A stretch of 56,662 nt of DNA from Nanobdellota archaeon (GTDB lineage Archaea; Nanobdellota; Nanobdellia; Woesearchaeales; CG1-02-33-12): contig JAHJQG010000040.1 of NCBI GenBank assembly GCA_018819345.1, forward strand, positions 1-56,662, written 5' to 3'. A model generated the notes under the pieces. The model was not told the origin of the DNA. It searched no databases and saw only the letters and a program-made list of their open reading frames with translations. Below are positions 7,034-25,200 of this stretch, one piece after another. The first letter of the stretch is position 1, and each line of letters opens with the position of its first letter. The translations under genes were made by a program, and so were the position numbers.

Positions 7034-8506
7034 TTATTTTTCTTCTTCTGGCTTCATCATTGGGAATAAAACAACATCCCTTACAGTTGGCTGGTTTGTC
7101 AGTATGGCCAGCAGTCTGTCAATGCCCAAGCCAAAGCCAGCTGTTGGAGGCATTCCTATTTCCAGGGCTTCAATAAAGTCCTGGTCCATCATCTGGGCCT
7201 CTTCATCTCCTGCTGCCCTTAGTTTCATCTGCTCTTCAAATCTTTCTTTCTGGTCAATTGGGTCATTTAACTCTGTGAATGCATTTACAATCTCTGAGCC
7301 TGCAACCAGTGCCTGAAATCTTTGTGTAAGTTTAGGATTGTCTTTGTGCTTTTTTGCAAGAGGAGAAATATCAATTGGATGATCTATTAAAAAGCATGGC
7401 TGTATAAGCTTTGGCCTTATATACTGCTTATATAACTGGTCTATTATACGGCCACGGCCAAGATTCTCGTCAATATCTATTTTAAGGCCCTTTTTTCTTA
7501 TAGCAGCTATAAGTTTTTCCTTAGTATCCTCTTTATTTAAATCAAGGCCTGTTTCTTCCTTCATTATTTTTGTGTAATCTATTTTTTTCCATTTCTTGCC
7601 TAAATCAATCGTTTTGTTGTTGTAGTTGATTTTAAGGGTGTTGAATGTTTGCTTTATTACTGTCTGTAAAAACCTTTCAGTGAAATCCATTAGCTCATTA
7701 TAATCCATGTAAGCAGCATAAAACTCAAGCATGGTGAATTCCTGCAGATGCTGAGTAGATAAGCCCTCATTCCTAAACACCTTTCCAATTTCATAAACCC
7801 TTTCATAGCCACCAACAATAAGCCTTTTCAGATGAAGCTCTAATGAGATTCTCAGATACATATCCATATCAAGAGTATTATGATGTGTTATGAATGGCCT
7901 AGCATCAGCACCACCTGGAACTAATTCAAGAACAGGAGTTTCAACCTCTAAAAACTTGTTTTCCTCAAGAAATTTCCTTAAATTAGTTATGAATTTTGCT
8001 CTTATGATGAAGAAGTCAAAAATCTTTCTGTTTGAGATTAAGTCAATATACCTCTTTCTGTATCTTATTTCCTGATCTTTGAGGCCGTGCCATTTTTCTG
8101 GCAGCTGTGCTAGGCTTTTTGTCAGTAATTGGAATGAATCAACATGGATAGTTATTTCTCCTGTTTTTGTCATGAAAACAGTTCCCTTGATTCCTATTAT
8201 ATCGCCAATGTCCAATAATTTTAATTTCTTGTATTCTTGTTTTCCAATATCATCCTGCCTGAAATATAATTGTATTTTTCCTTGTTTATCTGATAGGTTC
8301 ATGAAGCAGGCTTTTCCCATTGGCCTGTTCTGCATTATCCTGCCAGCAATAGAAACTTTCTTTTTAGTATGCTCTCCTTTAGAAATATTTTTGAATTTGG
8401 TTTTGATTTCCCTGCTGTCTGAATCAACCTTAAACACGCTTGGGTAAGGGTCTATTCCTTTTTCATAAATCCTGTCTAGTTTCTCTTTCTTGGTTTTGTT
8501 TATCAT
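7034..8506 (-). CDS. lysS: lysyl-tRNA synthetase, class II
   Basis: 490 aa. OB anticodon-binding N-domain and class II motifs (FRNEG, GGADARPF, GIDRL). Confidence 0.95.
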   Translation of the reverse strand: MINKTKKEKLDRIYEKGIDPYPSVFKVDSDSREIKTKFKNISKGEHTKKKVSIAGRIMQNRPMGKACFMNLSDKQGKIQLYFRQDDIGKQEYKKLKLLDIGDIIGIKGTVFMTKTGEITIHVDSFQLLTKSLAQLPEKWHGLKDQEIRYRKRYIDLISNRKIFDFFIIRAKFITNLRKFLEENKFLEVETPVLELVPGGADARPFITHHNTLDMDMYLRISLELHLKRLIVGGYERVYEIGKVFRNEGLSTQHLQEFTMLEFYAAYMDYNELMDFTERFLQTVIKQTFNTLKINYNNKTIDLGKKWKKIDYTKIMKEETGLDLNKEDTKEKLIAAIRKKGLKIDIDENLGRGRIIDQLYKQYIRPKLIQPCFLIDHPIDISPLAKKHKDNPKLTQRFQALVAGSEIVNAFTELNDPIDQKERFEEQMKLRAAGDEEAQMMDQDFIEALEIGMPPTAGFGLGIDRLLAILTNQPTVRDVVLFPMMKPEEEK

Positions 8507-8640
8507 TTTATTTTTATTATCTTAAATTATTTATAAATGTTGCTAATTTTTAGGGAATAAATTAGATTTTTAAAAGAAAAAGAAATTAGAAAAATAAAAA
8601 AGTTTTAATTAAATCACATCAAAGTCCCTGTATATAAAAG

Positions 8641-8988
8641 TTATAAGTCTTTAAACTTTTGAGATATCTCTTTTTTAATTTTATCAAATTCTGGCAATTC
8701 GCCAATCATTAGATTTTTAAGATCTATCTGCCATAGGTTTCTCATCATCTCAATCTTCTCTCTAAATTCTTTAAAGTCAAATTCTGTATTATAAAGTGCC
8801 AATTTTTTGTTTATCAAATTCTTATTGGGAATAATTTTTTTCTGCCTTTCATTCAATTTACTAACTATGTTCTCATCAATCTCAATAAAGGCCGGCTCTT
8901 TAATCTTCGATTCAAAGATAATTTTAGTTTCAACAGGATGTAATCTGTAATAAGGCTCTTTATTGCCTAATTGGTTACCTAAAAACAT
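8641..8988 (-). CDS. orphan C-terminal cassette ORF. Its first ~30 codons duplicate an internal segment of the upstream COG2865 gene.
   Basis: 115 aa starting MFLGNQLGNKEPYYRLHPVETKIIFESKIKEPAFIEI, compared with WGNKEPYYRLHPVETKIIFESKIKEPTFIDI inside 9097-10527. Nucleotides 8891-8968 are near-identical to 9391-9466. The remainder is unique and non-HTH. Confidence 0.5.
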   Translation of the reverse strand: MFLGNQLGNKEPYYRLHPVETKIIFESKIKEPAFIEIDENIVSKLNERQKKIIPNKNLINKKLALYNTEFDFKEFREKIEMMRNLWQIDLKNLMIGELPEFDKIKKEISQKFKDL

Positions 8989-9097
8989 GATATACCAACC
9001 TCCCTTTACCTTTTCTTACCAAAATATTTTCTTTTACAAGCTGGTTTAATTCCATTAAAGATATTCTCTTTGAGATAGAATTTACTTTTCTATGCAT
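8975..9097 (-). CDS. 40-aa ORF encoding only a winged-helix recognition helix and wing (orphan fragment or pseudogene)
   Basis: Its ATG overlaps the TAA of the upstream gene (TAATG). MHRKVNSISKRISLMELNQLVKENILVRKGKGRLVYHVFR parallels the C-terminal wHTH of COG2865 proteins. Conserved at 16061-16186. Confidence 0.3.
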   Translation of the reverse strand: MHRKVNSISKRISLMELNQLVKENILVRKGKGRLVYHVFR

Positions 9098-10527
9098 TAT
9101 TTGCTCCTCCTTTTTACAGTGCCATTTACAGTGCCATTTACAGTGCCATTTACAGTATCATTTACAGTATCATCAAAGCAATAATATCCTCTTTTGGCTG
9201 AGCCAATGAATCTAATAATTTTTTTCTTTTTTAAATCAAGTAAATCTCTTTTAGCAGTCCTCAAAGAAATTTTAACTAACTTAACATATTCTTCAGTTGT
9301 AATCCTGCCCTTATGTTTAAGATAATCTATTGCTTTAATCTGCCTCCTATTTAATCTCTCTAAAATATCTTTTTCAATATCAATAAACGTCGGCTCTTTA
9401 ATCTTTGATTCAAAGATAATTTTAGTTTCAACGGGGTGCAATCTGTAATAAGGCTCTTTATTGCCCCATTTTTTACACAAATCTCTCATCATATAAATTC
9501 CAGAGCCATACTTCTCAATAAAGCCAACATCATAAATCAACTGGCAGAGAATTTCATTAACTGGCTTGTGCCTTGGGTTTTTTGGGGTAACCCCTTTTGG
9601 AAAGGTTCCTGGATTAATGATTTCTACCCTATTGTCAAATATAAATATCCTTACATCGCCGGTTTCAAAATAATTTCTATGTATCAGGGCATTGATTATT
9701 GCTTCTCGTAATGCCCTTATCGGATACTCAAACTTATCTTCTCTCCTAAAACTCCTTTCTGTTCTTGTCCCTAAAAGCCTTATGTTTTTTCTTATAAAAT
9801 CCTCAGCAGTACTTATCATCTCCCAAATTGTTCCCTCACAATTAGCAGTATCTAATGTTGGATGAATCACTTTTGTGCCTTTAAATCTGACAACTCTTAA
9901 CCCTGCATTAGGCAGGAATTTTTGAGGAAACTTTCCAAAAAATAAGATTCCAGCATTTGTTGGTTTGTTGTTATGCAATGCTTTGATGTTCTGCAGCAAC
10001 TTATTAGTTGAGATTTTTGTTTCTCTGGAGATATTTCTTGCCTTTTCTCTTTGCTTAAGATAGCATTTAACTTTCTCTTCGTCAATGTCTTCTAAACCTG
10101 CATATTCACAAACCTGCTCACCCCATTTTATTTTTCCAGTGTCTTTAGCAAACTCAATAACTTCTTCTGGTGATAAGGGCTTATCATGAGATGCAATTCT
10201 TTTATAAGCAATATTCCTGAAAGAATGCAAACTATCTAACTTTTTAATTTCTGCAATAAAAATATTCTTGCCTTCAGTTTCAACAGCTTCAATTTTAGGA
10301 TAAACAGATGGCTTGCAGGTATGTGCAATATTGGCAATTTCCCTTTCATGTTTTTTATCAATACCAATAATTTCCCCGCTATCACTTATCCCAACTAAAA
10401 CAATTCCATCATTTGTGTTAGCAAAGGAGCAGATAGATTTGCCTAAGCCATCATCTATCTTTGATTTAAACTCTACTTTCTGATTTTCTCCTTTTTCTAT
10501 CAATTTTTCAATCTCTTTCTCATTCAT
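9097..10527 (-). CDS. Schlafen-like AlbA_2 + HATPase_c_4 + C-terminal wHTH protein (COG2865-type putative regulator/ATP-binding protein)
   Basis: 476 aa. EFKSK...SFANTNDGIVLVGISDSGEIIGI (AlbA_2) and REAIINALIHRNY (HATPase_c_4), a wHTH tail and a TVNG repeat at the C-terminus. Confidence 0.85.
   Translation of the reverse strand: MNEKEIEKLIEKGENQKVEFKSKIDDGLGKSICSFANTNDGIVLVGISDSGEIIGIDKKHEREIANIAHTCKPSVYPKIEAVETEGKNIFIAEIKKLDSLHSFRNIAYKRIASHDKPLSPEEVIEFAKDTGKIKWGEQVCEYAGLEDIDEEKVKCYLKQREKARNISRETKISTNKLLQNIKALHNNKPTNAGILFFGKFPQKFLPNAGLRVVRFKGTKVIHPTLDTANCEGTIWEMISTAEDFIRKNIRLLGTRTERSFRREDKFEYPIRALREAIINALIHRNYFETGDVRIFIFDNRVEIINPGTFPKGVTPKNPRHKPVNEILCQLIYDVGFIEKYGSGIYMMRDLCKKWGNKEPYYRLHPVETKIIFESKIKEPTFIDIEKDILERLNRRQIKAIDYLKHKGRITTEEYVKLVKISLRTAKRDLLDLKKKKIIRFIGSAKRGYYCFDDTVNDTVNGTVNGTVNGTVKRRSK
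9116..9173. repeat. 12-nt coding minisatellite (acagtgccattt, about 4.8 units) encoding DTVN/GTVN repeats
   Basis: Read directly. Units at 9116, 9128, 9140, 9152 and 9164. Only 2 units are present in the paralogous copy at 16202-16225. Confidence 0.9.
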
Positions 10528-10625
10528 TTTATCGCTTCTGCTTCGCCCCTGATTTGGAGGTTTGAGCCATTAAAGCTTATTGTTTGATTGGCATTGTTAT
10601 CTTAATGAATAATGTTTTTGTAATT

Positions 10626-10725
10626 AGTTTATACAAACACAGGGCTTTTTTATGCTTTGCCTGGTTTTTTCATTGGTTTTTTTAGAATTAGCGAATGAAT
10701 TCCGGAAAATAAGGCAATCAATTAG
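10626..10725. repeat. intergenic repeat family R1, copy a
   Basis: Aligns with 13754-13857 and 17730-17816. Carries the internal inverted repeat ttgcctgrtttt / aaaataaggcaa around a gaattccggaa palindrome. Confidence 0.8.
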
Positions 10726-10783
10726 AAAAAAAATTAAGGCAACTTAACATATCTGCAAGATTCTTAAAGTGTTATTTAATTAA
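10726..10783. repeat. intergenic repeat family R3, copy a
   Basis: aaaaaaattaaggcaacttaacatatctgcaagattcttaaagtg..tttaattaa recurs at 12588-12644. On the minus strand it reads as hairpin TTAAG-TTGC-CTTAA followed by a T7 run (terminator-like). Confidence 0.8.
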
Positions 10784-10858
10784 TTTACAGCGTTAAAAAA
10801 TAAGACTAATAAACTCTTTATTTTTACCATGCTAAATAATAGCTAATCCATACTATTT

Positions 10859-10921
10859 ATTTGAATGAATAGCTCAAATAACCGAAAGATTTATATATTT
10901 ATTTGAATAAATAGTTCAAAT
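10859..10921 (+). promoter_or_regulatory. promoter of the AbiE-like operon: BRE/TATA (cgaaagatttatata, TATA 10890-10897) flanked by two 21-bp inverted repeats
   Basis: ATTTGA-N9-TCAAAT occurs at 10859-10879 and 10901-10921. The second copy abuts the ATG at 10922. TATA-to-ATG spacing suggests a leaderless mRNA. Confidence 0.55.
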
Positions 10922-11656
10922 ATGTGGATTCCAAGATGGCTATGGGAAAGGTATAGGGAATTAAGGCTAAAGATAGGCCTTAATAACAGCTTCAGCTTTA
11001 AACAGGCAAAAGAGATATTCAGCTATAACAGGAATGAGATGATTTACAAGACATTAAATGAGTTGGAAAGACTAAATATAATCAATGTTGAAAGATCCAA
11101 AAATGATAAAAGAGTAAAAAGATATAAAATAGTCCTGGAATTAAAAGACATTCCATATGCAGATATTACAATTCCAACAAATAAGCAACAAGAACCCCAT
11201 GGTTTCCTTTCTTCAACTGGCTCTGCAGCTATTTTTGGAACAACATCTGCAAAACCCAGTGCTGCTTTTCATAGGATGTATAGTAAAGAGGGGAAACAAC
11301 AAATTACTATAGCCAAAAAGCCAGCAGCCAAAACAATTGAAGAGTATCTTGTTGAGAACATAAAAAGCTATAAATCTGCTGAGTCAATATTAGCTATAGT
11401 AAAAAAAGAAAAAATTGATTTCAGGAAAGTAATAAGAAACCTGAACTCATTCCAAAGAAGGTATTTAGGGGCATTATTGGAAATACTAAACAAAAAGGAA
11501 TTAGTAGAAGAATTGTATAATCTAACCAAAAATGATAACAGGAAATTCTCCATATTCCCAAAACAAATAAAAAAGGTTCCAGAAAAATATAAAAAGATAG
11601 CAAAGAAATGGAGAATTAATCTTAATATTGATGTGGTGAATATAGATGAACTATGA
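10922..11656 (+). CDS. AbiEi-like antitoxin/transcriptional regulator candidate (N-terminal wHTH)
   Basis: 244 aa. The N-terminal segment FKQAKEIF...YKTLNELERLNIINVER..KRVKRYKIV looks like a wHTH. Overlaps the downstream NTase gene by 11 nt. Confidence 0.45.
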   Translation: MWIPRWLWERYRELRLKIGLNNSFSFKQAKEIFSYNRNEMIYKTLNELERLNIINVERSKNDKRVKRYKIVLELKDIPYADITIPTNKQQEPHGFLSSTGSAAIFGTTSAKPSAAFHRMYSKEGKQQITIAKKPAAKTIEEYLVENIKSYKSAESILAIVKKEKIDFRKVIRNLNSFQRRYLGALLEILNKKELVEELYNLTKNDNRKFSIFPKQIKKVPEKYKKIAKKWRINLNIDVVNIDEL

Positions 11657-12335
11657 GGAAACTGAAAAACAGTCCTTAGAGCTAACAGATGATTTATGTA
11701 ATAATATACTCAGCAAGATAAGCCACTTTGTTATAGGCGGGTGGGCAGTTACAGCTTACAGCGGCAATATTAGGTTTACTGCTGATGTTGACCTCATAAC
11801 AAAGCCATTAACAACAATGCCTGTTATAAAGGCATTTAATAAGGATTGGGATACAAAAAAAGTATTTTATGGTGTTCAGGCTAAACATAGAAAAACAGGT
11901 ATACAGGTTCACATAAATACAATCAGTAATATGCTTGACAGGACAACTAATACAAAAATACCTGTTCCCAGTGAATTATTTGAGAATATATGCAAAGCAA
12001 GGATTAATGGAATTTATTGCAAAAACACAATTGAGATTCCCATTTGTCCCTTTAATTATCTGCTTACATTGAAAGCAATCCCAAATAGGGTAAGGGATGA
12101 TTTTGATTTTATTCTATTATGGCTAAATAAAAATTATTCAATTGAGGAATTCAAGAAATATCTGAATAAATGCAATAATATTAAGCCTTTTTTTGATAAG
12201 TGCAGAAGAATTTCAGATAAAAATTATTTTTATTCCTTACCTAAAAAGCTTATTACCAATCAGAGATTTGATTTAATAAAATATAATGTAATAACTAAAA
12301 AGATTGATGAAATAAAAGCTATGTGTAAAAGCTAA
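11646..12335 (+). CDS. AbiEii/DUF1814-like nucleotidyltransferase (type IV toxin candidate)
   Basis: 229 aa. VIGGWAVTAYSGNIRFTADVDL matches the GG.A...Y...R.T.D.D NTase signature. Confidence 0.55.
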   Translation: MNYEETEKQSLELTDDLCNNILSKISHFVIGGWAVTAYSGNIRFTADVDLITKPLTTMPVIKAFNKDWDTKKVFYGVQAKHRKTGIQVHINTISNMLDRTTNTKIPVPSELFENICKARINGIYCKNTIEIPICPFNYLLTLKAIPNRVRDDFDFILLWLNKNYSIEEFKKYLNKCNNIKPFFDKCRRISDKNYFYSLPKKLITNQRFDLIKYNVITKKIDEIKAMCKS

Positions 12336-12429
12336 TGAGTTTTCTCAAGAATCCTGTCTGTTATAACAATAAAAACCAAAACCATTACTAATTCTAAGCT
12401 GGTGGGAAAATAAATAATTTCTCGACGAG

Positions 12430-12512
12430 AAAATCAAAATAAAAAAAATCACTATCAACTGGTTATGCTTAAAGGTTTTTAAGGAAAAACCTGTTTTAAC
12501 AACTTTTAGGCA
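12430..12512. repeat. intergenic repeat family R2, copy a
   Basis: aataaaaaaaatcact..ctggttatgcttaaaggtttttaaggaaaaacctgttttaacaacttttag. Copies at 13858-13940 and 14642-14730. Contains the hairpin aggttttt-aagg-aaaaacct. Confidence 0.8.
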
Positions 12513-12587
12513 AGAAAAATACCGAAGTGAAGCATAGGCACAGTATGACGCAGGGCACTCTTTATTAAGTGCGAAGCAGAATAAAAG

Positions 12588-12644
12588 AAAAAAATTAAGG
12601 CAACTTAACATATCTGCAAGATTCTTAAAGTGCTGTTTAATTAA
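12588..12644. repeat. intergenic repeat family R3, copy b (overlaps the stop codon of 12641-13258)
   Basis: Near-identical to 10726-10783. Confidence 0.8.
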
Positions 12645-13258
12645 CCTGCCTCATTAAAGTAAACATCCTGTTTTGTATAATTTACATTGAGCTTATTGAG
12701 GAAACCAATCATATCATTCTCCCTGTTTTTTGGTATAGCAAGCATTCCATCCCCTAATCTTCTCCCGCCAAGTGCTTCTACTGCACCCTTTTTTATGTAT
12801 ATCTTGCTGCCTACTTTTTGCTTATATCCATAAAGCCTTCTCCATACCCTCAGCCTTGTCTTTTGGTGCAGCTTCTTCATTGAAATAGCAAATGAAATGA
12901 AATGCTTTAGGTTTTCTGGCAGCTTTTCATATTTGCCATATAAAGTTATGCCATTGTCTAGAATACTTTCTCTCAAGCTAGGCCAATCCTTAAGCTTTCC
13001 TATCTTGAGTGAAATCTGATTCTCTGTTCCTAAATCCAAATATTTTTCATGCTCTTTTGATTTTTTAAACAATTTGAGGGTTTCCTCTATTTTTTTCTCA
13101 CTTTCTTCTGTTTCTATAAATAAATCAATATCACTCTCATTATCATAATCCCCTCTTGCAACTGAGCCAAACAGCACAACAGCATTCACATTCTGTATTC
13201 TCCTTAAGAGAAAAGATGTGAAAGCAAGTGCATATGATATAATCTCATTTCTCTTCAT
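12641..13258 (-). CDS. MNT-type nucleotidyltransferase with an uncharacterised ~95-aa C-terminal extension
   Basis: 205 aa. LFGSVARGDYDNESDIDLFIE. Paralog at 17839-18459 has the same architecture. Overlaps the upstream HEPN-like gene by 14 nt. Confidence 0.7.
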   Translation of the reverse strand: MKRNEIISYALAFTSFLLRRIQNVNAVVLFGSVARGDYDNESDIDLFIETEESEKKIEETLKLFKKSKEHEKYLDLGTENQISLKIGKLKDWPSLRESILDNGITLYGKYEKLPENLKHFISFAISMKKLHQKTRLRVWRRLYGYKQKVGSKIYIKKGAVEALGGRRLGDGMLAIPKNRENDMIGFLNKLNVNYTKQDVYFNEAG

Positions 13259-13646
13259 TTTTCATCACCTTATTTACATCCTCTTCAATATTCTGAAGAA
13301 GCTTTACAGCTTTCAATACCTCTGCTTTATCTTTTTTTGAGCCATAACTAAGTTTTTCGCAGGTTTTTTCCAATTCTATAATCTTCTCTAATATTGGCGC
13401 TTTATGGGGAAATGCCGGAAGCTTGCCACTAACCTTCTTGCTTTTAAACCATCTGTGGTTAAGCTGCATTCCTGGACCAATTCTTTTTGTTTTCTGAAGA
13501 TATATTGCCAGGATATCAAGAGCAGCCCTTGATGCATGCAGACCTATTATGCGCTGGCTGTTTTCTATTCCCTTAACTTCAAGCGCCCAGTCAAATATAG
13601 CTTCTTTATGCTACTTTAGTGATTCTTCATGCTCTTCAGTTTTCAT
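13245..13646 (-). pseudogene. HEPN-like four-helix protein interrupted by an in-frame TAG at codon 12 (13611-13613)
   Basis: Translation MKTEEHEESLK*HKEAIFDWALEVKGIENSQRIIGLHASRAALDILAIYLQKTKRIGPGMQLNHRWFKSKK... is colinear with the intact 132-aa paralog at 18443-18841. The ORF track shows only the last 74 aa. Confidence 0.6.
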
Positions 13647-13664
13647 AATATTTGCCTGTCTTTT

Positions 13665-13729
13665 ATGATATCTTATATCATATTTTTCTAATACTATATA
13701 TCATATGATATTTAGTATATAAATGTTTT
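13665..13729 (-). promoter_or_regulatory. promoter core aaaacatttatata (13716-13729, minus sense) plus two palindromes built on the half-site ATGATAT
   Basis: atgatat-ctt-atatcat at 13665-13681 and atatcatatgatat at 13698-13711, both between the TATA and the ATG at 13646. Confidence 0.5.
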
Positions 13730-13753
13730 GATATTTAGCCATCTTAGTGAATT

Positions 13754-13857
13754 AGCTTATACAAACATAGGGCTTTTTTATTCTTTGCCTGATTTTTTTA
13801 TGGGTTTTTTTAGAATTAATAAATGAATTCCGGAAAATAAGGCAATTAATCTTAAGA
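13754..13857. repeat. intergenic repeat family R1, copy b
   Basis: Aligns with 10626-10725. Confidence 0.8.
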
Positions 13858-13940
13858 AATCACAATAAAAAAATCACTGTTGGTTATGCTTAAAGATTTT
13901 TAAGGAAAAACCTGTTTTAGCAACTTTTAGAAAACAAAAT
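13858..13940. repeat. intergenic repeat family R2, copy b
   Basis: Aligns with 12430-12512 and 14642-14730. Confidence 0.8.
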
Positions 13941-14014
13941 ATTTTTTTATTGGATTCAAAATTAGTTGCACACAAATTGCTTGCAAATTGTCTTTAAGAA
14001 ATATTAGCTAAATC

Positions 14015-14560
14015 CTACTTTAAACAGGATATATCCAAGCCCCCTTCTTCGAGGCATATTATCATATTATTTTCAATTTTATAAGAACTTATATCAGGAT
14101 TATCCACTTTTGCCTTGCAGCATAAATTATTTGCAAGGTTTTCTGCAAGAAGGTCATATTGAAGCTCCAAATAATCTATTTCTTCTTGTTTTTCATTTCT
14201 TAGTTTGTCCAGCTCTTCATTTTTTTGGTCTAAATCCGCTCTCAATAAACTAAAATTTGTTTTCAGTGCATTTAATTCACTGTTGCACTCAGAAAATTTA
14301 TCTGAGTATTTCTCTAATTCAGTCAAAAGCTCTTTATTGAATGCGCTGCAGGATGACAGGTTTGTGTCAGAGACCAGAAGTTTTGTTTTCAAGTCCTGTA
14401 TGTCTTCTCCGTAATCTTCCACAGAATAATTTGATTCTTTTACCTGTTTGTATATAGTATAACCTATTATTCCCGGTCTTATTATGAATATTAACAGTAT
14501 TATAGCAATAACTATTATTAATGCAAGAATAATATTTCTTTTAAGTTTTTCTTCAACCAT
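14015..14560 (-). CDS. membrane-anchored coiled-coil protein with a Cys-rich C-terminus, function unknown
   Basis: 181 aa. One N-terminal TM (IILALIIVIAIILLIFII), a heptad-like E/K/L-rich middle and seven cysteines (five in the C-terminal half). Flanked by R2 copies b and c. Confidence 0.5.
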   Translation of the reverse strand: MVEEKLKRNIILALIIVIAIILLIFIIRPGIIGYTIYKQVKESNYSVEDYGEDIQDLKTKLLVSDTNLSSCSAFNKELLTELEKYSDKFSECNSELNALKTNFSLLRADLDQKNEELDKLRNEKQEEIDYLELQYDLLAENLANNLCCKAKVDNPDISSYKIENNMIICLEEGGLDISCLK

Positions 14561-14641
14561 ACAGACTTTAAATTAGATGTCTAATTTTTTAAATCTTTCT
14601 ATTTCTGGGATTTTTACATTAATAATAAATTTCCCGTCAAT

Positions 14642-14730
14642 AAAATCAGAATAAAAAAAATCACTACTAACTGGTTATGCTTATATATTTTTAAAGGAAA
14701 ATCTGTTTTAACAACTTTTAGAAAACAAAA
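14642..14730. repeat. intergenic repeat family R2, copy c
   Basis: Aligns with copies a and b; the hairpin arm is partly degraded. Confidence 0.75.
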
Positions 14731-14886
14731 CAGCACAAAACAAACCAATTCTTTACGCTAAAATTATTTTATGTGCAGTTATTTTAAGATTAGAATAAGA
14801 ATAATTTAAGATAAGAATAAGCATAAAATAAAAATAAAAAAATAGAGGCAGAAAATGAAAGAAGGAATGATAAAGCAAAAAAAAGA

Positions 14887-15597
14887 TTAAGAGCATCTCT
14901 CTGATATTCTCTTCATCCCTTCCGGCATAAGCTCCTCAAGTTCTATACCCTTTGCTAAGTATGGTTTGACATTGTGCATCGCACCTATGATAAGTAAGCC
15001 AGTTTCTTCTTCTTTTAATGATTTGTTTATGTTATCTGCGATTGCCATGTCTCTTTTTTCCCCTCTTTCAGCTTGTTCTGATTGTTGCTTCGCAATTTTA
15101 ACTGTTAGCTCTTTTATCTCTTCCTCCTCTTTCGGGTTGTACTTCTTCCCCTTGCTTAACTCTTCTTTAACCTTAATGAGTTTGACATAATTTTGAAAGA
15201 ATGTTGCTTCTTCCAATACTAGTTTTGGGTCTTCTGTTTGTTTTATTTCCGATCCTTTCTTTGCTAAGTTTAATACTAGTTCATAGCTTCTGCTTCCAGC
15301 TGATACTTTCTCTTCCAGATCGTTCAGGAATTGGTCGTAAATTTCTGGTTTTGTTTTTGCAACAGTTGCCCAGTCAATAGCCCCGCCATCCTGGTATATT
15401 TTATCAACTTTTTCTTTTTCAAACTTCTTTCCTAATAAATCATAAAAATTGTTTATCACTTTTTCAAGTTTCTTAATTCCTTCGCTTCCGTAAGCCTTTT
15501 TCTCGATGTTTTTTATGTCGTCTGCTGATATGCCTAAGGTTTTGTTTTCAAGGTCTGTACTAAGGTGTATGTCGTATACGCAAAATAGTTTTCTCAT
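14887..15597 (-). CDS. hypothetical protein, possible Tiki/TraB/ChaN-superfamily fold
   Basis: 236 aa. N-terminal VYDIHLS and C-terminal ERGEKRDMAIADNI...GLLIIGAMHNV resemble the GxxH ... R(D/E)xxM ... GxxH pattern. Weak, from memory only. Confidence 0.35.
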   Translation of the reverse strand: MRKLFCVYDIHLSTDLENKTLGISADDIKNIEKKAYGSEGIKKLEKVINNFYDLLGKKFEKEKVDKIYQDGGAIDWATVAKTKPEIYDQFLNDLEEKVSAGSRSYELVLNLAKKGSEIKQTEDPKLVLEEATFFQNYVKLIKVKEELSKGKKYNPKEEEEIKELTVKIAKQQSEQAERGEKRDMAIADNINKSLKEEETGLLIIGAMHNVKPYLAKGIELEELMPEGMKRISERCS

Positions 15598-15716
15598 TTT
15601 TTGTTCCCTCTATCTTAATCAATAATAATACCATTATTTTTGTTATAATTGTATTTCTATAATTATTTTTTCAAAACTGAGATTGAATAAAATGTTAAGT
15701 GCTATATAAAGTAAAA

Positions 15717-15744
15717 GGTTTTCGCAAGCATTTCTGTGCATAAT
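15717..15744. repeat. 28-nt exact repeat ggttttcgcaagcatttctgtgcataat (second copy at 24485-24512)
   Basis: Read directly. On the minus strand it supplies gcgaaaacc (BRE-like) just upstream of a tttatata box, ahead of 14887-15597. Confidence 0.85.
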
Positions 15745-15747
15745 TTT

Positions 15748-16074
15748 TCATTTGCCTATTACCTCCCAATGCCCACTTTTAGTTGGACCTTTCCATTCAA
15801 CAACTCCTTTCTTCCTTAATTGTTTAATATGATATTTCACCCCATCTATAGTAATACCCAATTGTTTTGCAAGTTCCTCTTTCGTAATTTTTGGGTTTTT
15901 CCTAACTAAAATAAGGATACTCTCACCAGTTTTAAGGGTAGTTTTCCCCACAGTTTTCTCCACAGTTTTCTCACTAATTTGAGAGTAAACAACTGCTTTA
16001 GTTTCAACAGGATGGAATCTGTAATAAGGCTCTTTATTGCCTAATTGGTTGCCTAATTGGTTACTTAAAAACAT
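15748..16074 (-). CDS. orphan C-terminal cassette ORF: end of a HATPase_c_4 domain plus a complete wHTH
   Basis: 108 aa. MFLSNQLGNQLGNKEPYYRFHPVETK..., then ILILVRKNPKITKEELAKQLGITIDGVKYHIKQLRKKGVVEWKG. Its 5' end lies inside junction repeat R4-B. Confidence 0.5.
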   Translation of the reverse strand: MFLSNQLGNQLGNKEPYYRFHPVETKAVVYSQISEKTVEKTVGKTTLKTGESILILVRKNPKITKEELAKQLGITIDGVKYHIKQLRKKGVVEWKGPTKSGHWEVIGK

Positions 16075-16223
16075 AATATACCGACCTCCCTTTACCTTTT
16101 CTTACCAAAATATTTTCTTTTACAAGCTGGTTTAATTCCATTAAAGATATTCTCTTTGAGATAGAATTTATTTTTCCATGTATCATTTGCTCCTCCTTTT
16201 TACAGTATCATTTACAGTGCCAT
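15997..16223. repeat. junction repeat R4, copy B
   Basis: See 8923-9173. Relative to copy A it carries an extra gcctaattggtt unit and only 2 minisatellite units. Confidence 0.85.
16061..16186 (-). CDS. 41-aa ORF, paralog of 8975-9097 (wHTH recognition helix and wing fragment)
   Basis: MIHGKINSISKRISLMELNQLVKENILVRKGKGRSVYYVFK. Its ATG overlaps the TGA of the remnant tail (ATGA). Confidence 0.3.
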   Translation of the reverse strand: MIHGKINSISKRISLMELNQLVKENILVRKGKGRSVYYVFK

Positions 16224-16287
16224 CTAGACAGTAATAACCTGTTTTTGGCGGACCAACAAACCGAATTATTTTACTTTTGACTTTCTG
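16183..16287 (-). pseudogene. remnant of a COG2865-gene C-terminal tail, in frame with 16288-17691 directly after its TGA
   Basis: QKVKSKIIRFVGPPKTGYYCLDGTVNDTVKRRSK* parallels KKIIRFIGSAKRGYYCFDDTVND...KRRSK* of gene 9097-10527. Confidence 0.55.
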
Positions 16288-16316
16288 TCACCTTTTGTCA
16301 CCTTTTGTCACCTTTA
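16287..16316. repeat. 3 x 10-nt tandem repeat (gtcacctttt) containing the stop codon of 16288-17691
   Basis: Read directly. The unit length is not a multiple of 3. Confidence 0.9.
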
Positions 16317-17691
16317 TAATATAATATCTCCCCCTACCAGTAACAGAGCCTTTTTGTACAACTACACCAAGTTTAACTAGTTGATTTAAATCACGTATAG
16401 CTGTTCTTTTACTACAACCTATGAGTTCAATGTACTGTTGTGTTGTTATTTTTTCTTCTCCTTCTATACCTCTATCAAAAAACTTCTTTTGTCTCTGGTT
16501 CAGCTTACTTTCATCCAGTACAGGAATTTTTTGTATTGCAGGATTAACAAACTTAATAACAAAAAAACCTTGTTTTTCTATGAATTCAGGATTTGGTAGA
16601 TTCCATTTCCTCATAGACTCCCTAATTCTCAAGAAGCCAGTTCCTCTTTTATCCATAACCCCTGATTTGCTTAGTACCTCAACCAAAACCTTATTCCTAC
16701 TCTTAGGAATATAATCATCTTTCATAATATCACTAATTTTAAGGGGTCTTAATAGTTCTCCAGGACTTATAATATCAATATGGCTATTAAACATTCTAAG
16801 TAAAATAGCATTAGAACTATGCCAGTCTCTATGCACTAAAGCATTGATTATAGCTTCTCTTAGTGCTTCAACTGGATATTCTGTTCTAAATTCTGTTTTA
16901 AAACCAATAACTTTAGCAGGTGTTCTCATATTTTTAAGCATGAATTCTTCTGTTAGTTTAATTATCTCAAATAAAGTTCCATGGATATCCTTTCTGTCTA
17001 ACCATTCTACCATAGAATCCCCAACATACCTGTCTGCTCTTATTTCACATTGTGTTATGTTTAAATGTGAGTTTTTGCCAAACAATAAAATACCTGCAAT
17101 TGTTGGTATTAGTCGATCATTTTCTTTAACAATAAAATGCTCCTTTAACATTAACTCACTCAAGTAACCATTGTTCAATTGTTTTGTTAACTCACTTTTT
17201 TTCAAATATTTTTTCACTTTTTCTAAATCCAAATCATCTAAACCAGCGTTTTCAACAGGAAAAACATCCTGTGACTTGCTTGATCCTTCCCTATACAATC
17301 TTGCGATTTCTTCCTTATTTGCAATAACATTAGAAGAGCCAATTCTTACTCTTGGTTTTGATTCACCTCTGACAAAATAAGGTGTATCTTTTCCTTTAGG
17401 GCAATGAACAACAATGAAATCCCTATTTTCATATTTTATAAATTCAATTTTTGGCTCTTCATCAAGCCGGCACCAATGCCTTATTATTTGGGTAAACCTA
17501 TGTTCTGCCTTCTGTGGCTCTTTGATGCCAAGGAGTTTTCTCCCTTTATCTTCCACACCAAGAATTATCTTGCCCCCTCTTGAATTATAAAAGGCAGTAA
17601 CTAACTGGGCAACTTTTTTAGATTCAGGCAACTCCAGCTTGAAATCCAAATCCTTATTTTCTTTTTCTTTTACAAATTTTTCCACATTCAT
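16288..17691 (-). CDS. Schlafen-like AlbA_2 + HATPase_c_4 + wHTH protein (COG2865-type), second paralog
   Basis: 467 aa. DFKLEL...AFYNSRGGKIILGVEDKGRKLLGI, REAIINALVHRDW and the C-terminal wHTH SKRTAIRDLNQLVKLGVV. Confidence 0.85.
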   Translation of the reverse strand: MNVEKFVKEKENKDLDFKLELPESKKVAQLVTAFYNSRGGKIILGVEDKGRKLLGIKEPQKAEHRFTQIIRHWCRLDEEPKIEFIKYENRDFIVVHCPKGKDTPYFVRGESKPRVRIGSSNVIANKEEIARLYREGSSKSQDVFPVENAGLDDLDLEKVKKYLKKSELTKQLNNGYLSELMLKEHFIVKENDRLIPTIAGILLFGKNSHLNITQCEIRADRYVGDSMVEWLDRKDIHGTLFEIIKLTEEFMLKNMRTPAKVIGFKTEFRTEYPVEALREAIINALVHRDWHSSNAILLRMFNSHIDIISPGELLRPLKISDIMKDDYIPKSRNKVLVEVLSKSGVMDKRGTGFLRIRESMRKWNLPNPEFIEKQGFFVIKFVNPAIQKIPVLDESKLNQRQKKFFDRGIEGEEKITTQQYIELIGCSKRTAIRDLNQLVKLGVVVQKGSVTGRGRYYIIKVTKGDKR

Positions 17692-17729
17692 TTTGAAGTT
17701 TGAACTGTTAAAGCCTATTGCCCTTAACT

Positions 17730-17816
17730 TATTTTTATGTTTTGCCTGATTTTTTCATTGGTTTTTTTAGAATTAGCGAATAAATTTCGGAAAAATAAGG
17801 CAATTAATCTTAAGAA
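17730..17816. repeat. intergenic repeat family R1, copy c (5'-truncated)
   Basis: Aligns with the distal two thirds of copies a and b. Fills the gap between the 17839 stop and the 17691 start. Confidence 0.75.
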
Positions 17817-17838
17817 TTAGAAAAAGCAAAATATCTTA

Positions 17839-18459
17839 TTAGCTGTATTCTACTATCTTTCTTATTTTAGCTGTTATTTTCATTTTCTTAAAAAGCTTCA
17901 TAAAAACAGTTGAATGCTTTGTTAGAACTATGATGCTTCCCTTACTTAATTTTTCACCACCATACTGATTCAGAAGCCCTTTATATTCTTTTTTCTCAGC
18001 CTTATACCCAAATAATCTTTTAAATAATAACACTCTTCTTGATTCAGGTTTTATCTTTTCCCATGAAAAGATGGTTTTGTGAACAGCATTTCCTGGTGTT
18101 GATTCATATTTCCCGTATAATAAAATGCCATTTGATATTATGCTGTTCTTTATATCCTTCCAGTTATCCAATCTTCCTGTAATAATTTTGATATCATTCT
18201 TTATTCCCTTTAATTCCCAGTAATTCCTGCATCTCATCGAACTGAAGAACATGCTCTTTATTTTTTCAGCAGACTTTTCAATATTCACATTATTCACAGT
18301 TTCTATAAATAAATCAACATCGCTGTTAGCATCAGCTTCTTCTCTAGCAACAGAGCCAAATAGGATTATTTTCTCAATCTTGCTTGTATCAACCCTTTCC
18401 AGAAAAAAGGATATAAAATCAATAGCATAGCTTAATAGTCTTTTAGTCAAGATCAACAC
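17839..18459 (-). CDS. MNT-type nucleotidyltransferase with the same ~95-aa C-terminal extension as 12641-13258
   Basis: 206 aa. LFGSVAREEADANSDVDLFIE...LLYGKYE, then RRVLLFKRLFGYK... parallel to RLRVWRRLYGYK... Confidence 0.7.
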   Translation of the reverse strand: MLILTKRLLSYAIDFISFFLERVDTSKIEKIILFGSVAREEADANSDVDLFIETVNNVNIEKSAEKIKSMFFSSMRCRNYWELKGIKNDIKIITGRLDNWKDIKNSIISNGILLYGKYESTPGNAVHKTIFSWEKIKPESRRVLLFKRLFGYKAEKKEYKGLLNQYGGEKLSKGSIIVLTKHSTVFMKLFKKMKITAKIRKIVEYS

Positions 18460-21179: not shown

Positions 21180-21344
21180 CGAGCCTGCCGGGACTTTCAC
21201 AATGGTTGCGAGCGAAGCGAGCTAAGGGGGTTTGGCTTTTAAGCCAAACCCTCTGTTGCGTATCAAATGCGCGTAACCATTTGTTCGAACCCGGGATCTA
21301 CAGCTTAGGAGGCTGTCACCCTATCCAGACTAGGCTACAGGCTC
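21180..21344 (-). tRNA. tRNA-Arg(CCU) with a 90-nt intron in the T-loop (between positions 59 and 60)
   Basis: Exon 1 is 21284-21344 (GAGCCUG-UA-GCCU..GGGU-G-ACAGC-CUCCUAA-GCUGU-AGAUC-CCGGG-UUCGAA). The intron is 21194-21283. Exon 2 is 21180-21193 (U-CCCGG-CAGGCUC-G), followed by T6. Acceptor and T stems are perfect, and a BHB spans both junctions. Confidence 0.85.
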
Positions 21345-24463: not shown

Positions 24464-24484
24464 CATCATTATACTAAAGTATGC

Positions 24485-24512
24485 GGTTTTCGCAAGCATT
24501 TCTGTGCATAAT
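24485..24512. repeat. 28-nt exact repeat, second copy (see 15717-15744)
   Basis: Identical 28-mer. On the minus strand it is followed by the TATA-like tttagtataa (24468-24477), pointing toward the hairpin cluster. Confidence 0.85.
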
Positions 24513-24591: not shown

Positions 24592-25200
24592 ATGTTTACA
24601 AGAACCCAAGAACAAATTTTGATTTTTTTATTAAGCAAACCAGAAGAGCAGCTTACAATTAGAGGTATTGCGAAAAGACTGGGCAAATCATACACATTAG
24701 TTTATAATAATATTGCTAAACTAGAGAAGGAAAGCATTATTAGGAAACAAAATGTTCCTCCTGGGCAGATTATAACATTAAATGAATTTGCACCCACAGA
24801 AATTTTTGTTGATATTGAACTAAAAAGAAAAAAAGAATTCCTAAAAAAATATCCATGGGTGCAAGTAATGCTTAGGGATATTTTGTTATCTACTAAAAAT
24901 CTTTTTTTTACTCTGCTTGTTTTTGGCTCTTATGCTAAAGCAACACAAACAAAGAGTTCTGATTTTGACTTATTAATCATTGTGCAGGACAAAAAAGATA
25001 TAAAGGATGTAGAGTATGCTATAGGGGGGGCTTATACCAAAGTTAAAAAAGGATTGAATTTTGTTGATATAAATGATTTTAAAGAAATGATTAAAAATAC
25101 AAACGAATTGAATATTGGAAATGAAGCAAAAAAACACCACATTGTACTATATGGAGTAGAAGTATACTATCAATTGCTAGAAAGGATTTATAAAAGATGA
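24592..25200 (+). CDS. wHTH-fused MNT-type nucleotidyltransferase
   Basis: 202 aa. N-terminal wHTH (LTIRGIAKRLGKSYTLVYNNIAKLEKESII) and VFGSYAKATQTKSSDFDLLI. Confidence 0.7.
   Translation: MFTRTQEQILIFLLSKPEEQLTIRGIAKRLGKSYTLVYNNIAKLEKESIIRKQNVPPGQIITLNEFAPTEIFVDIELKRKKEFLKKYPWVQVMLRDILLSTKNLFFTLLVFGSYAKATQTKSSDFDLLIIVQDKKDIKDVEYAIGGAYTKVKKGLNFVDINDFKEMIKNTNELNIGNEAKKHHIVLYGVEVYYQLLERIYKR

Follow-up and report, generated by a model that had tools for sequence, protein, structure and literature searches.

Stacks of 3′ gene fragments behind two archaeal Schlafen genes and a putative recombination hinge before their variable winged-helix tails

The contig JAHJQG010000040.1 (assembly GCA_018819345.1) of a Nanoarchaeota (DPANN) archaeon (positions 1 to 56,662, here called the window) carries two complete prokaryotic Schlafen genes, gene A and gene B. 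Each is followed on the same strand by a stack of small open reading frames (ORFs). We conclude that these small ORFs are probably 3′ ends displaced by successive replacements of the tail or of the whole gene, and that by now they probably are silent relics. A segment common to gene A and some of the small ORFs, called the handle below, is by the evidence of the alignments a real past recombination junction and the hinge between the constant and the variable part of this family. A previous sequence-only reading of the locus had proposed a cassette system in which recombination between handle copies swaps the winged helix-turn-helix (wHTH) domain of gene A for an alternative tail. The handle kept its role as a junction in our analysis, whereas no evidence was found for a cassette system in active use.

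Two complete Schlafen genes of the Slfn-HisKinase-HTH class

Gene A (9097..10527, minus strand) encodes a complete protein of 476 amino acids (aa). All three domains previously read from its sequence were recovered with Pfam: SLFN_AlbA_2 at residues 14-118 (3.5e-20), HATPase_c_4 at residues 291-372 (1.6e-17) and, as the wHTH, HTH_DeoR at residues 395-444 (1e-5). The translation contains the catalytic-type motif E14-NQKV-E19-F-K21, of the form Ex4(E/D)xK, and E14 and E19 are near-invariant across an alignment of 54 sequences. The same form constitutes the active site of Schlafen tRNases, with E15/D20 in RorSlfn5 (PMC13056530).

The AlphaFold2 model of gene A, calculated with 54 aligned homologues as input, has a mean predicted local distance difference test score (pLDDT) of 84.2. 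Foldseek searches with this model returned first 3LMM, a COG2865 structure, and then human SLFN14 and pig SLFN11, besides weaker matches (E about 0.01-0.02) to the catalytic and ATP-binding (CA) domains of histidine kinases and to wHTH proteins. In the model, the wHTH is formed by helices 386-434 and the wing strands 438-451, followed by a disordered tail of TVNG repeats. This C-terminal tail is encoded by a 12-nt tandem repeat for the tetrapeptide TVNG (9113..9168, minus strand; 4.7 copies according to Tandem Repeats Finder). Strains differ in the number of repeats, with a 12-nt deletion at 9162-9173 in the closely related contig L024.

Gene B (16288..17691, minus strand; 467 aa) is a second complete paralogue of the same class. 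Although only ~29% of its residues match gene A, all three domains recur in it (PF04326 with 5e-18, as well as PF13749 and HTH_DeoR), and its translation shows the corresponding motif E11-NKDL-D16-F-K18. Both are thus prokaryotic Schlafen genes of the class that joins a Slfn nuclease, a GHKL/HisKinase-like domain and a wHTH, and the architecture, catalytic-type motif and fold of gene A are established. Their family membership suggests that both may act as antiviral tRNases.

The combination of Slfn, HisKinase and HTH accounts for 19.2% of the prokaryotic Schlafens (pSlfn), whose C-terminal domains fused to the Slfn nuclease are proposed to be sensors; no HisKinase-HTH member has been shown to defend (PMC13056530; Perez Taboada et al., Nat Microbiol 2026). 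With this class (COG2865, also labelled ‘putative DNA binding domain-containing protein’ or ‘RecG-like’) genes A and B have in common the three domains, the motif, the SLFN-like fold, the location in a defence-type island and the fusion of the nuclease to variable C-terminal modules. They differ in being archaeal (DPANN). Displaced 3′ fragments or a fixed recombination hinge are not described in that study (PMC13056530).

A repeated handle and the fragments behind gene A

The handle inside gene A (9374..9476, minus strand; GNKEPYYRLHPVETKIIFESKIKEPTFI) lies at the boundary between the constant body and the variable tail. Its counterpart in the model is the beta-hairpin that closes the GHKL-like domain (strands 360-363 and 367-373), together with the beginning of a disordered linker (378-385) with pLDDT below 50. 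A second copy is found in ORF115 (8641..8988, minus strand), where nt 8876-8978 match 9374-9476 with 89.3% identity over 103 nt, including two exact runs of 26 nt. The two copies are direct repeats in the same orientation at a distance of 498 nt, in agreement with the ~500 bp noted previously. Exactly three copies of the 26-mer GGCAATAAAGAGCCTTATTACAGATT are present in the window (at 8942, 9440 and 16016), with none expected from 100 shuffles. Its third copy opens ORF108, located behind gene B. ORF115 and ORF108 have the 5′ half of the handle in common and continue with two different tail classes after VETK.

All copies are direct; no inverted handle copy exists between 8400 and 18600. We also found no raised conservation of synonymous sites in the handle, as selection for DNA homology would leave: in eight gene pairs, third positions are as similar in codons 355-382 as in the 54 codons before them. 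The handle is simply the 3′ end of the conserved body. A scan of one genome per species with the handle alignment yielded just two short contigs, labelled Bacteroidales and Saprospiraceae, with no useful context.

The first element behind gene A is ORF40 (8975..9097, minus strand), which starts in a TAATG overlap with the stop of gene A. It is the remnant of a different wHTH tail, here called X-type, and lacks the handle. Its homology to X-type tails begins at about position 9089, both in alignments to the proteins P0003, P0007, P0012, P0015 and P0016 and by blastn against the contig L010. Aligned are the last ~38 residues of a complete X-type wHTH, comprising the end of helix 2, the recognition helix and the wing, the last two of which the sequence-only reading had assigned to this 40-aa ORF. 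The complete X-type tail is present on the full-length proteins P0007, P0012, P0015 and P0016 as well as on the fragments P0003 and P0047, the latter N-terminally truncated. P0003, detected by a protein search with ORF115 as query, is a 182-aa fragment from another metagenome in which the ORF40 sequence forms the C-terminal end of a complete wHTH following the handle. From the alignments to P0003 and the full-length relatives, it follows that ORF40 and its counterpart ORF41 behind gene B represent the last helix and the wing of an X-type tail.

ORF115 comes next and overlaps ORF40 by 14 nt. An overlap of the same length between ORF40 or ORF41 and the following orphan exists at both loci of the window and in L010. 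It had been claimed that ORF115 becomes unrelated to gene A right after the duplicated start. The duplication is real, while weak homology to gene A runs on through an LNERQKK motif to position 8836, and the last 64 codons alone are unrelated. For this unique tail we obtained no Pfam match, no sequence relative in the PDB, no homologue among 5.8 billion proteins except ORF115 itself, and no relative by tblastx or blastn in any frame of the window and the fetched loci. The tail is nevertheless open over its full length (P about 0.001 in shuffles), against 7 and 11 stops in the other two frames, and it is probably a piece of some coding sequence. In place of the wHTH, the swap with ORF115 envisaged from the sequence would bring in a tail whose distal 64 codons contain no recognizable domain. 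In the strain represented by L024, the start codon of ORF115 is changed from ATG to ATA at 8986. The presumed order at locus A, from oldest to newest, is ORF115, the X-type tail (ORF40) and gene A.

Exchange of tails and heads among the relatives of gene A

The closest homologues of gene A are 58-78% identical overall, and several of them are labelled Nanoarchaeota. This identity is distributed unevenly, with 43-81% in the N-terminus, 71-93% in the body, 59-100% in the handle and 33-85% in the tail. The conserved body (about codons 135-385) is paired with exchangeable nuclease heads and with at least seven types of wHTH tail, and the groupings of the relatives are incongruent between the N-terminus, body, handle and tail. 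One relative (P0007/L018) matches gene A with 92% in the body and 96% in the handle, but with 40% in the tail; compared with P0016, it shows 73% identity in the tail and 81% in the body. In P0061 the body diverges most from gene A (71%), yet the tail is A-type at 64%, and L014 combines a body at 93% and a tail at 85% with an N-terminus at 45%.

The DNA similarity between gene A and L018 (84%) ends at position 9373 of the window, and that between gene A and L010 (95%) at 9377. This breakpoint corresponds to codon ~384, within the linker that is disordered in the model, and it is also where the high-identity copy of the handle in ORF115 reaches its 3′ limit. Measured per 25 codons, identity drops from ~95% to ~50% over codons 376-400. 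Judged by these alignments, the crossovers of tails cluster at the last beta-hairpin and the linker of the GHKL-like domain. Because full-length relatives have the body of gene A joined to other tails, with the break in similarity at 9373-9377, the handle has indeed been a recombination junction.

The gene at 2725-4137 of L014 is 93% identical to gene A at the nucleotide level from about codon 135 on and has an unrelated head, like that of the 466-aa gene of L002. Such an unrelated head on a matching body places a second recombination hinge near codon 130-135. The mosaicism and the coincident breakpoints are direct observations, as are the anatomy of the stacks and the conservation of a junction across genomes described below.

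The stack behind gene B

At the DNA level, we found no homology to the handle in gene B. A 10-nt tandem repeat (GTGACAAAAG; 16281..16315, minus strand; 3.4 copies) spans its TGA stop and constitutes the junction of gene B with a displaced remnant of the A-type. This remnant of 34 codons (16183..16287, minus strand) consists of the wing, the TVN repeat and KRRSK followed by the stop; it is closest to the P0002/L014 allele, lacks the handle and lies directly 3′ of the TGA in frame with gene B. The TGA is located inside the 10-nt repeat, and the protein would acquire a different C-terminus by read-through or by the gain or loss of repeat copies.

The next element, ORF41 (16061..16186, minus strand; 41 aa), is a second copy of the X-type wHTH remnant, likewise without the handle. 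The 178-nt repeat family that contains ORF40 and ORF41 is 94% identical between the two loci. Following ORF41 are the repeat (GGTAACCAATTA)2, the handle and the tail of ORF108. The common block of both loci, made up of the A-type end, ORF40 or ORF41 and the 5′ half of the handle, pairs 8923-9140 with 15997-16226 at 90% and continues with 9149-9222 against 16199-16272 at 76%.

ORF108 (15748..16074, minus strand) comprises a (GNQL)2 12-nt repeat, the 5′ half of the handle (15997-16041), an EKTV linker (15940-15972) and a complete HTH_24 domain (1.5e-11 in Pfam). The same tail class, HTH_24 after an xKTV tetrapeptide repeat, is found in the 466-aa and 437-aa genes of L002. In shuffles of AT-rich DNA, 80 open codons as in this tail arise with a chance of about 0.001. 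At locus B the order from oldest to newest would be the HTH_24 tail (ORF108), the X-type tail (ORF41), the A-type tail (34 codons) and gene B.

The handle and the complete wHTH of this second orphan agree with what had been reported from the sequence. Its description as a lone distant cassette does not, since it stands behind the paralogous gene B. ORF108 is located upstream of gene A on the coding strand. For this reason, a deletion between repeats cannot place its tail on gene A, and only gene conversion could.

The in-frame position of the remnant directly behind the TGA and the 14-nt overlap between ORF40 or ORF41 and the next orphan, kept at both window loci and in L010, could also be taken as traces of recoding. 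Isoforms would then arise by read-through of the gene B stop, adding 34 codons, or by a +1 shift at UUU-AGG-UAA that joins ORF40 or ORF41 to the orphan. However, an in-frame position is expected by chance in one of three cases, we detected no signal for recoding, the extended proteins would contain partial domains twice, and ORF40 and ORF41 lack a functional upstream part of a gene. We therefore consider recoding very improbable.

Junctions and fragments in other genomes

One junction of the stacks is older than this lineage. In L010, a Logan assembly of a different organism in which the segments in common with the window are 84-95% identical at the nucleotide level, the stop of the X-type tail is followed by (GGTAACCAATTA)3, the handle and an HTH_24 tail, in the same order as in the window. 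The X-type fragment of L010 is 182 aa long and reaches back to the middle of the GHKL-like domain. Because L010 carries the same junction, the joining of X-type tail and handle predates the split of the lineages. By this comparison, the remnants of about 40 aa in the window are probably products of later truncation, in which an A-type 3′ end, and behind gene B also gene B itself, replaced the rest of the fragment.

Between ORF108 and the corresponding orphan of L010 (112 aa, same start region), the synonymous divergence (dS) is 0.11 in the handle and about 1.7 in the tail, with an omega of 0.27. This pattern would be expected either if tails were exchanged behind a common handle or if the handle is being homogenized. 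The persistence of an intact 112-aa counterpart despite saturated synonymous divergence of the tail also bears on the question whether the small ORFs, above all ORF108, are co-transcribed stand-alone wHTH genes that regulate or antagonize the full-length Schlafen, be it through competition for a common DNA site or through an antitoxin-like action. ORF108 has an ATG and a complete HTH_24 domain, small proteins of xKTV repeats plus HTH_24 exist elsewhere (P0129, P0130), and GGAGG-like motifs can be read ahead of the ATGs of ORF40 and ORF115. These motifs are, however, codons of the conserved KRRSK and GKGR motifs, and the ATGs are probably fortuitous because they derive from TATTATG, the conserved Tyr-Tyr-Val/Ala codons in the wing ahead of them. 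Moreover, the ATG of ORF115 is lost in the sister strain, and the N-terminal hairpin fragment would be an orphaned piece of another domain. A stand-alone function of this kind thus appears rather unlikely to us.

A short tandem duplication is present at all four junctions that we have seen. These are the 10-nt repeat at the stop of gene B; the GNQL 12-mer, with one, two and three copies at locus A, locus B and in L010, respectively; an independent repeat of ~11 nt (TTATGCCAACT, ~2.5 copies) that precedes the L002 orphan; and the TVNG 12-mer that closes the A-type tail, ~15 nt short of the junction with the X-type remnant. Such duplications may be the marks of slippage or of microhomology joins. 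In-frame 12-nt repeats (TVNG, EKTV, GNQL, RPND, KVTD and GKTV) recur at module boundaries, that is, between hinge and wHTH, after the wHTH and ahead of orphans. Tetrapeptide repeats were located at 9113-9168, 15940-15972 and 16037-16062 of the window, at ~6017-6050 of L002, and in P0005, P0127-P0130 and L012, and their copy number differs between strains that are 99.3% identical.

In a related species, a 117-aa orphan (P0005) that starts in the middle of the handle at LHPVETK follows a full gene of 446 aa within a tandem array of paralogues (three or four, depending on the contig). The identical orphan was present on at least 24 contigs, and no handle matching that of P0005 was found in its neighbouring gene. 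A tblastn survey of all fetched loci detected C-terminal fragments at ~7 of 12 distinct related loci, besides an N-terminal fragment in L014 and a fragmented second gene copy in L025-L029. P0127 and P0128 are single ORFs in which a partial and a complete wHTH are stacked together with tetrapeptide repeats. From this survey together with P0127 and P0128, we conclude that debris is common in the family and biased toward 3′ ends. Part of this bias may come from selection against fragments that contain only the nuclease. Likewise, since related loci hold N-terminal fragments and a fragmented second copy, part of the picture is ordinary decay.

Independent assemblies and strain variation

The window and the other contigs that cover the locus stem from metagenomes, and some contigs break within the island: L001 ends near 13.2 kb, and the NCBI metagenome-assembled genome (MAG) splits gene B. 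Mixed strains could in principle have been collapsed into false partial tandem duplications. However, the independent European Nucleotide Archive (ENA) contig L001 shows the same arrangement, encodes the same proteins for gene A and ORF115 and is 100% identical over the stretch compared by BLAST. The NCBI MAG contig L024 (GCA_018897235.1, ‘Nanoarchaeota archaeon’) has the same structure at 99.3% identity over 9957 nt, and the same junction of X-type tail and handle occurs in the Logan assembly of another organism. As the same structure is present in the window contig, L001 and L024, the stacks are not an assembly error, and an artefact is extremely improbable.

The three assemblies contain no structural variant of the stacks, and no protein with the tail of ORF115 or ORF108 on a full-length body was found among the 5.8 billion. 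The window and L024 differ in the copy number of the TVN repeat at both loci and in scattered as well as clustered single-nucleotide polymorphisms (SNPs). One cluster is a patch of 26 SNPs over 93 nt (16553..16645, minus strand) with eight amino-acid changes, located in the handle-equivalent of gene B between identical flanks. Two natural alleles exist for this patch; P0135 (same MAG) carries that of the window, and P0136, P0137 (ENA) and P0138 (JGI) carry the other. The patch looks like a short gene-conversion tract, placed at the structural element that the handle forms in gene A. Short patches of clustered SNPs relative to L024 are also present in lysS and the nucleotidyltransferase (NTase) gene (7102-7280, 12849-12855 and 13072-13080). 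This suggests that recombination of short tracts is frequent, or that strains are mixed, in the region as a whole and not only in the Schlafen genes. Decay of the orphans in relatives, together with a lack of structural variants, had been named as the sign of inert debris; L024 has lost the ATG of ORF115, and the ORF108 counterpart in L010 is intact.

These data also allow an assessment of an active reservoir of silent cassettes, in which recombination at the handle re-equips an expressed Schlafen with another wHTH tail and changes what the nuclease senses or binds. The route would be a deletion for ORF115 and non-reciprocal gene conversion for ORF108. Such use would fit the retention of the handle in the same orientation in both orphans, with a 26-nt stretch identical in three copies, the mosaicism of the family at the handle hinge, the open orphan tails with omega below 1 and the conversion-like patch in gene B that is polymorphic in nature. 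It would also fit the proposal that domains fused to the Slfn nuclease are sensors (PMC13056530) and the experimental demonstration of recombination between main and orphan modules in Rhs (PMC3967940). However, the recombination in Rhs is supported by 522 bp at 95% identity (PMC3967940), as opposed to just 103 nt at 89% for the handle. The 5.8 billion database proteins include no recombinant, and the structure is unchanged in the window contig, the ENA contig and the 99.3% identical NCBI MAG contig. The handle is missing from gene B, and also from ORF40, ORF41 and the A-type remnant, which makes these fragments unusable; the tail of ORF115 has no DNA-binding domain; and a deletion would be irreversible. 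With neither a recombinase nor an inverted handle copy, with short homology and with gene B and several fragments devoid of the handle, the cassette system proposed from the sequence is not sustained, and we regard an active reservoir as unlikely.

Displacement by successive replacement

The displacement of 3′ ends, which we favour, could have proceeded as follows. A new allele or paralogue would have recombined in from the 5′ side of the locus, anchored at its 5′ end by homology in the body or in the upstream element D2 (see below). The downstream join would have been illegitimate, accompanied by tandem duplications of 10-12 nt, leaving the resident 3′ end behind. Repetition of such replacements would build up a stack of left-over 3′ ends behind the gene. 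Both the direction of displacement and this mechanism are what we infer from the arrangement. The direct repeats could still give rise to a 498-bp deletion, joining the body of gene A to the tail of ORF115, or the fragments could serve as gene-conversion donors. That the fragments are relics is supported by the loss of the ATG in L024, the lack of a recombinant protein in the database, and the absence of a recombinase and of inverted repeats.

Several observations weigh against displacement into silent relics. The tails of ORF108 and ORF115 are open at a chance of ~0.001, so they are either young or under some constraint, and selection on the orphan itself would be compatible with the omega of 0.27 obtained for the ORF108-type tail. 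Internal deletions in a former tandem array would leave the same picture, and such arrays exist (L002, L019). N-terminal fragments occur as well (L014, L025-L029), and the 3′ bias may reflect counter-selection of nuclease-only fragments instead of a mechanism.

Comparison with known systems

The arrangement resembles the orphan modules behind Rhs and CdiA toxin genes, which are displaced fragments that keep some of the conserved coding sequence and usually lack initiation signals (PMC3967940; Koskiniemi et al. 2014). In both cases a full gene is followed on the same strand by 3′ fragments that join a conserved piece to a divergent C-terminal module. The formal likeness pointed out by the sequence-only reading thus holds for ORF115 and ORF108, but not for ORF40, ORF41 and the 34-codon remnant, which are without the conserved piece. 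Further points in common are a constant region combined with alternative C-terminal modules (here body 71-93%, tails 33-85%, at least seven types) and direct repeats that could fuse the main gene to an orphan. In contrast to Rhs/CdiA, the module is a wHTH or of no recognized type and not a toxin, immunity genes are not paired with the fragments and no small gene comes after each of them, the host is an archaeon, the homology is limited to 103 nt at 89%, and no recombinant was observed among the database proteins and the three assemblies that cover the locus.

Partial, promoter-less copies that offer alternative specificity domains next to a conserved recombination segment are also known from shufflons (hsdS of type I restriction-modification systems, pglX of BREX) and from pilE/pilS. 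As in these systems, partial gene copies have a recombination segment in common with the expressed gene. Unlike in shufflons, the repeats are direct and not inverted, no recombinase is adjacent, and no variants occur among the available assemblies; a scan of 20 ORFs between 8.6 and 25.2 kb revealed no member of an integrase or recombinase family. Unlike for pilE/pilS, no known element for the initiation of gene conversion is present at the Schlafen loci.

Ordinary decay of paralogues has its own points of likeness, as relatives possess tandem arrays of three to four full paralogues (L002, L019/L020) and fragments of both ends. The loci differ from it in the strong excess of 3′ fragments, the recurrent breakpoints at one hinge, the junction kept across genomes and at two loci, and the long and open ORFs.

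For Schlafen/COG2865 proteins or archaea, we found no description of orphan or displaced fragments, a fixed hinge or a hypervariable wHTH tail in the literature searched, in line with the previous statement for Schlafen-like proteins, although such an absence is not proof.

The surrounding island

Genes A and B are located in a variable defence-type island between lysS and housekeeping genes. AbiEi-like and MNT-type genes lie within 10 kb of them. The element D2 upstream of gene A (10622..10731, minus strand) has copies upstream of gene B (17707-17816) and upstream of the pair of a 74-aa ORF and an NTase gene (13750-13859), and it is ~67% similar to the regions upstream of the gene A orthologues in L014 and L016. 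It is possible that D2 acts as the 5′ homology anchor for gene replacement. Another repeat, D3, lies downstream of three different minus-strand genes (12409-12518, 13830-13939 and 14621-14730), and a third, D9, is present at 10727-10797 and 12588-12658. The island is built from gene cassettes, spaced by a composite intergenic repeat of about 200 nt. These repeats may be common terminator or promoter modules as well as recombination anchors.

Between the D9 copies and on the opposite strand lie an AbiEi-like gene (10922-11656, plus strand; PADLOC 4e-6, C-terminal part only) and an overlapping partner of 229 aa (11646-12335, plus strand) that has no family match. They look like an inserted toxin-antitoxin or abortive infection (Abi) pair. 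Of three MNT-type NTase genes (12641-13258, 17839-18459 and 24592-25200), the third has a wHTH fused to its N-terminus, and the other two are paralogues of each other (13095-13174 versus 18284-18363 at 74%). One of these paralogues is located upstream of gene B; its counterpart upstream of gene A is separated from that gene by the AbiEi-like pair. The arrangement suggests that a segment with an NTase gene and a Schlafen gene was duplicated at an earlier time.

Right after the stop of ORF108, a segment of 42 nt (15703-15744) is 91% identical to 24470-24512, a stretch located ~80 nt ahead of the HTH-NTase gene. This segment adds a further scrap to the displaced DNA. An integrated element with attachment (att) sites at these positions near tRNA-Thr was considered and rejected, because the genes in between are housekeeping genes, and no integrase is present. 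A tRNA-like sequence at 21286-21344 (minus strand; RF00005, 31.9 bits) has acceptor, D and anticodon arms (loop CUCCUAA), 3 nt instead of the T arm, and is not called by ARAGORN. Possible identities are a pseudogene, one half of a tRNA and a tRNA of unusual form, and such a sequence is of interest in a nanoarchaeon. Rfam gave no match for a structured RNA in 8400-18000, and a scan for bacterial promoters and terminators was uninformative, the host being archaeal.

Implications for prokaryotic Schlafen proteins

Modular shuffling of the sensors of defence systems is widely accepted. Prokaryotic Schlafens have recently been shown to be antiviral tRNases whose specificity is set by the fused C-terminal domains, and the HisKinase-HTH class is one of the two largest among them, with no member shown to defend. 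The gene class itself (PMC13056530) and the orphan modules of polymorphic toxins were already known, and the loci described here would represent a new mechanism only if reuse of the fragments were shown.

Within the HisKinase-HTH class, our comparisons indicate that the wHTH tail and, separately, the nuclease head have been exchanged at defined hinges, both between alleles and between paralogues. No part of the protein changes faster than the tail, and its exchanges appear to leave a readable stack of displaced ends behind the gene. This suggests that the wHTH is a specificity determinant under diversifying pressure. For domain swaps, the relatives provide a natural map of permissible chimera junctions, at about codon 384 in the disordered linker.

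We give little credence to the farther-reaching idea that the fragments are a standing library of silent wHTH cassettes for sensing or target recognition, drawn on by conversion or deletion at a fixed interdomain hinge to retarget the Schlafen immune nuclease. In such a library, the linkers of 12-nt tetrapeptide repeats would be extra sites of slippage or recombination, and the logic of antigenic variation would be applied to an innate immune sensor. The preferred interpretation, displacement of 3′ ends, extends the orphan-module pattern of polymorphic toxins to an archaeal immune gene family. If the fragments were reused, they would constitute a new route to the diversification of immune sensors.

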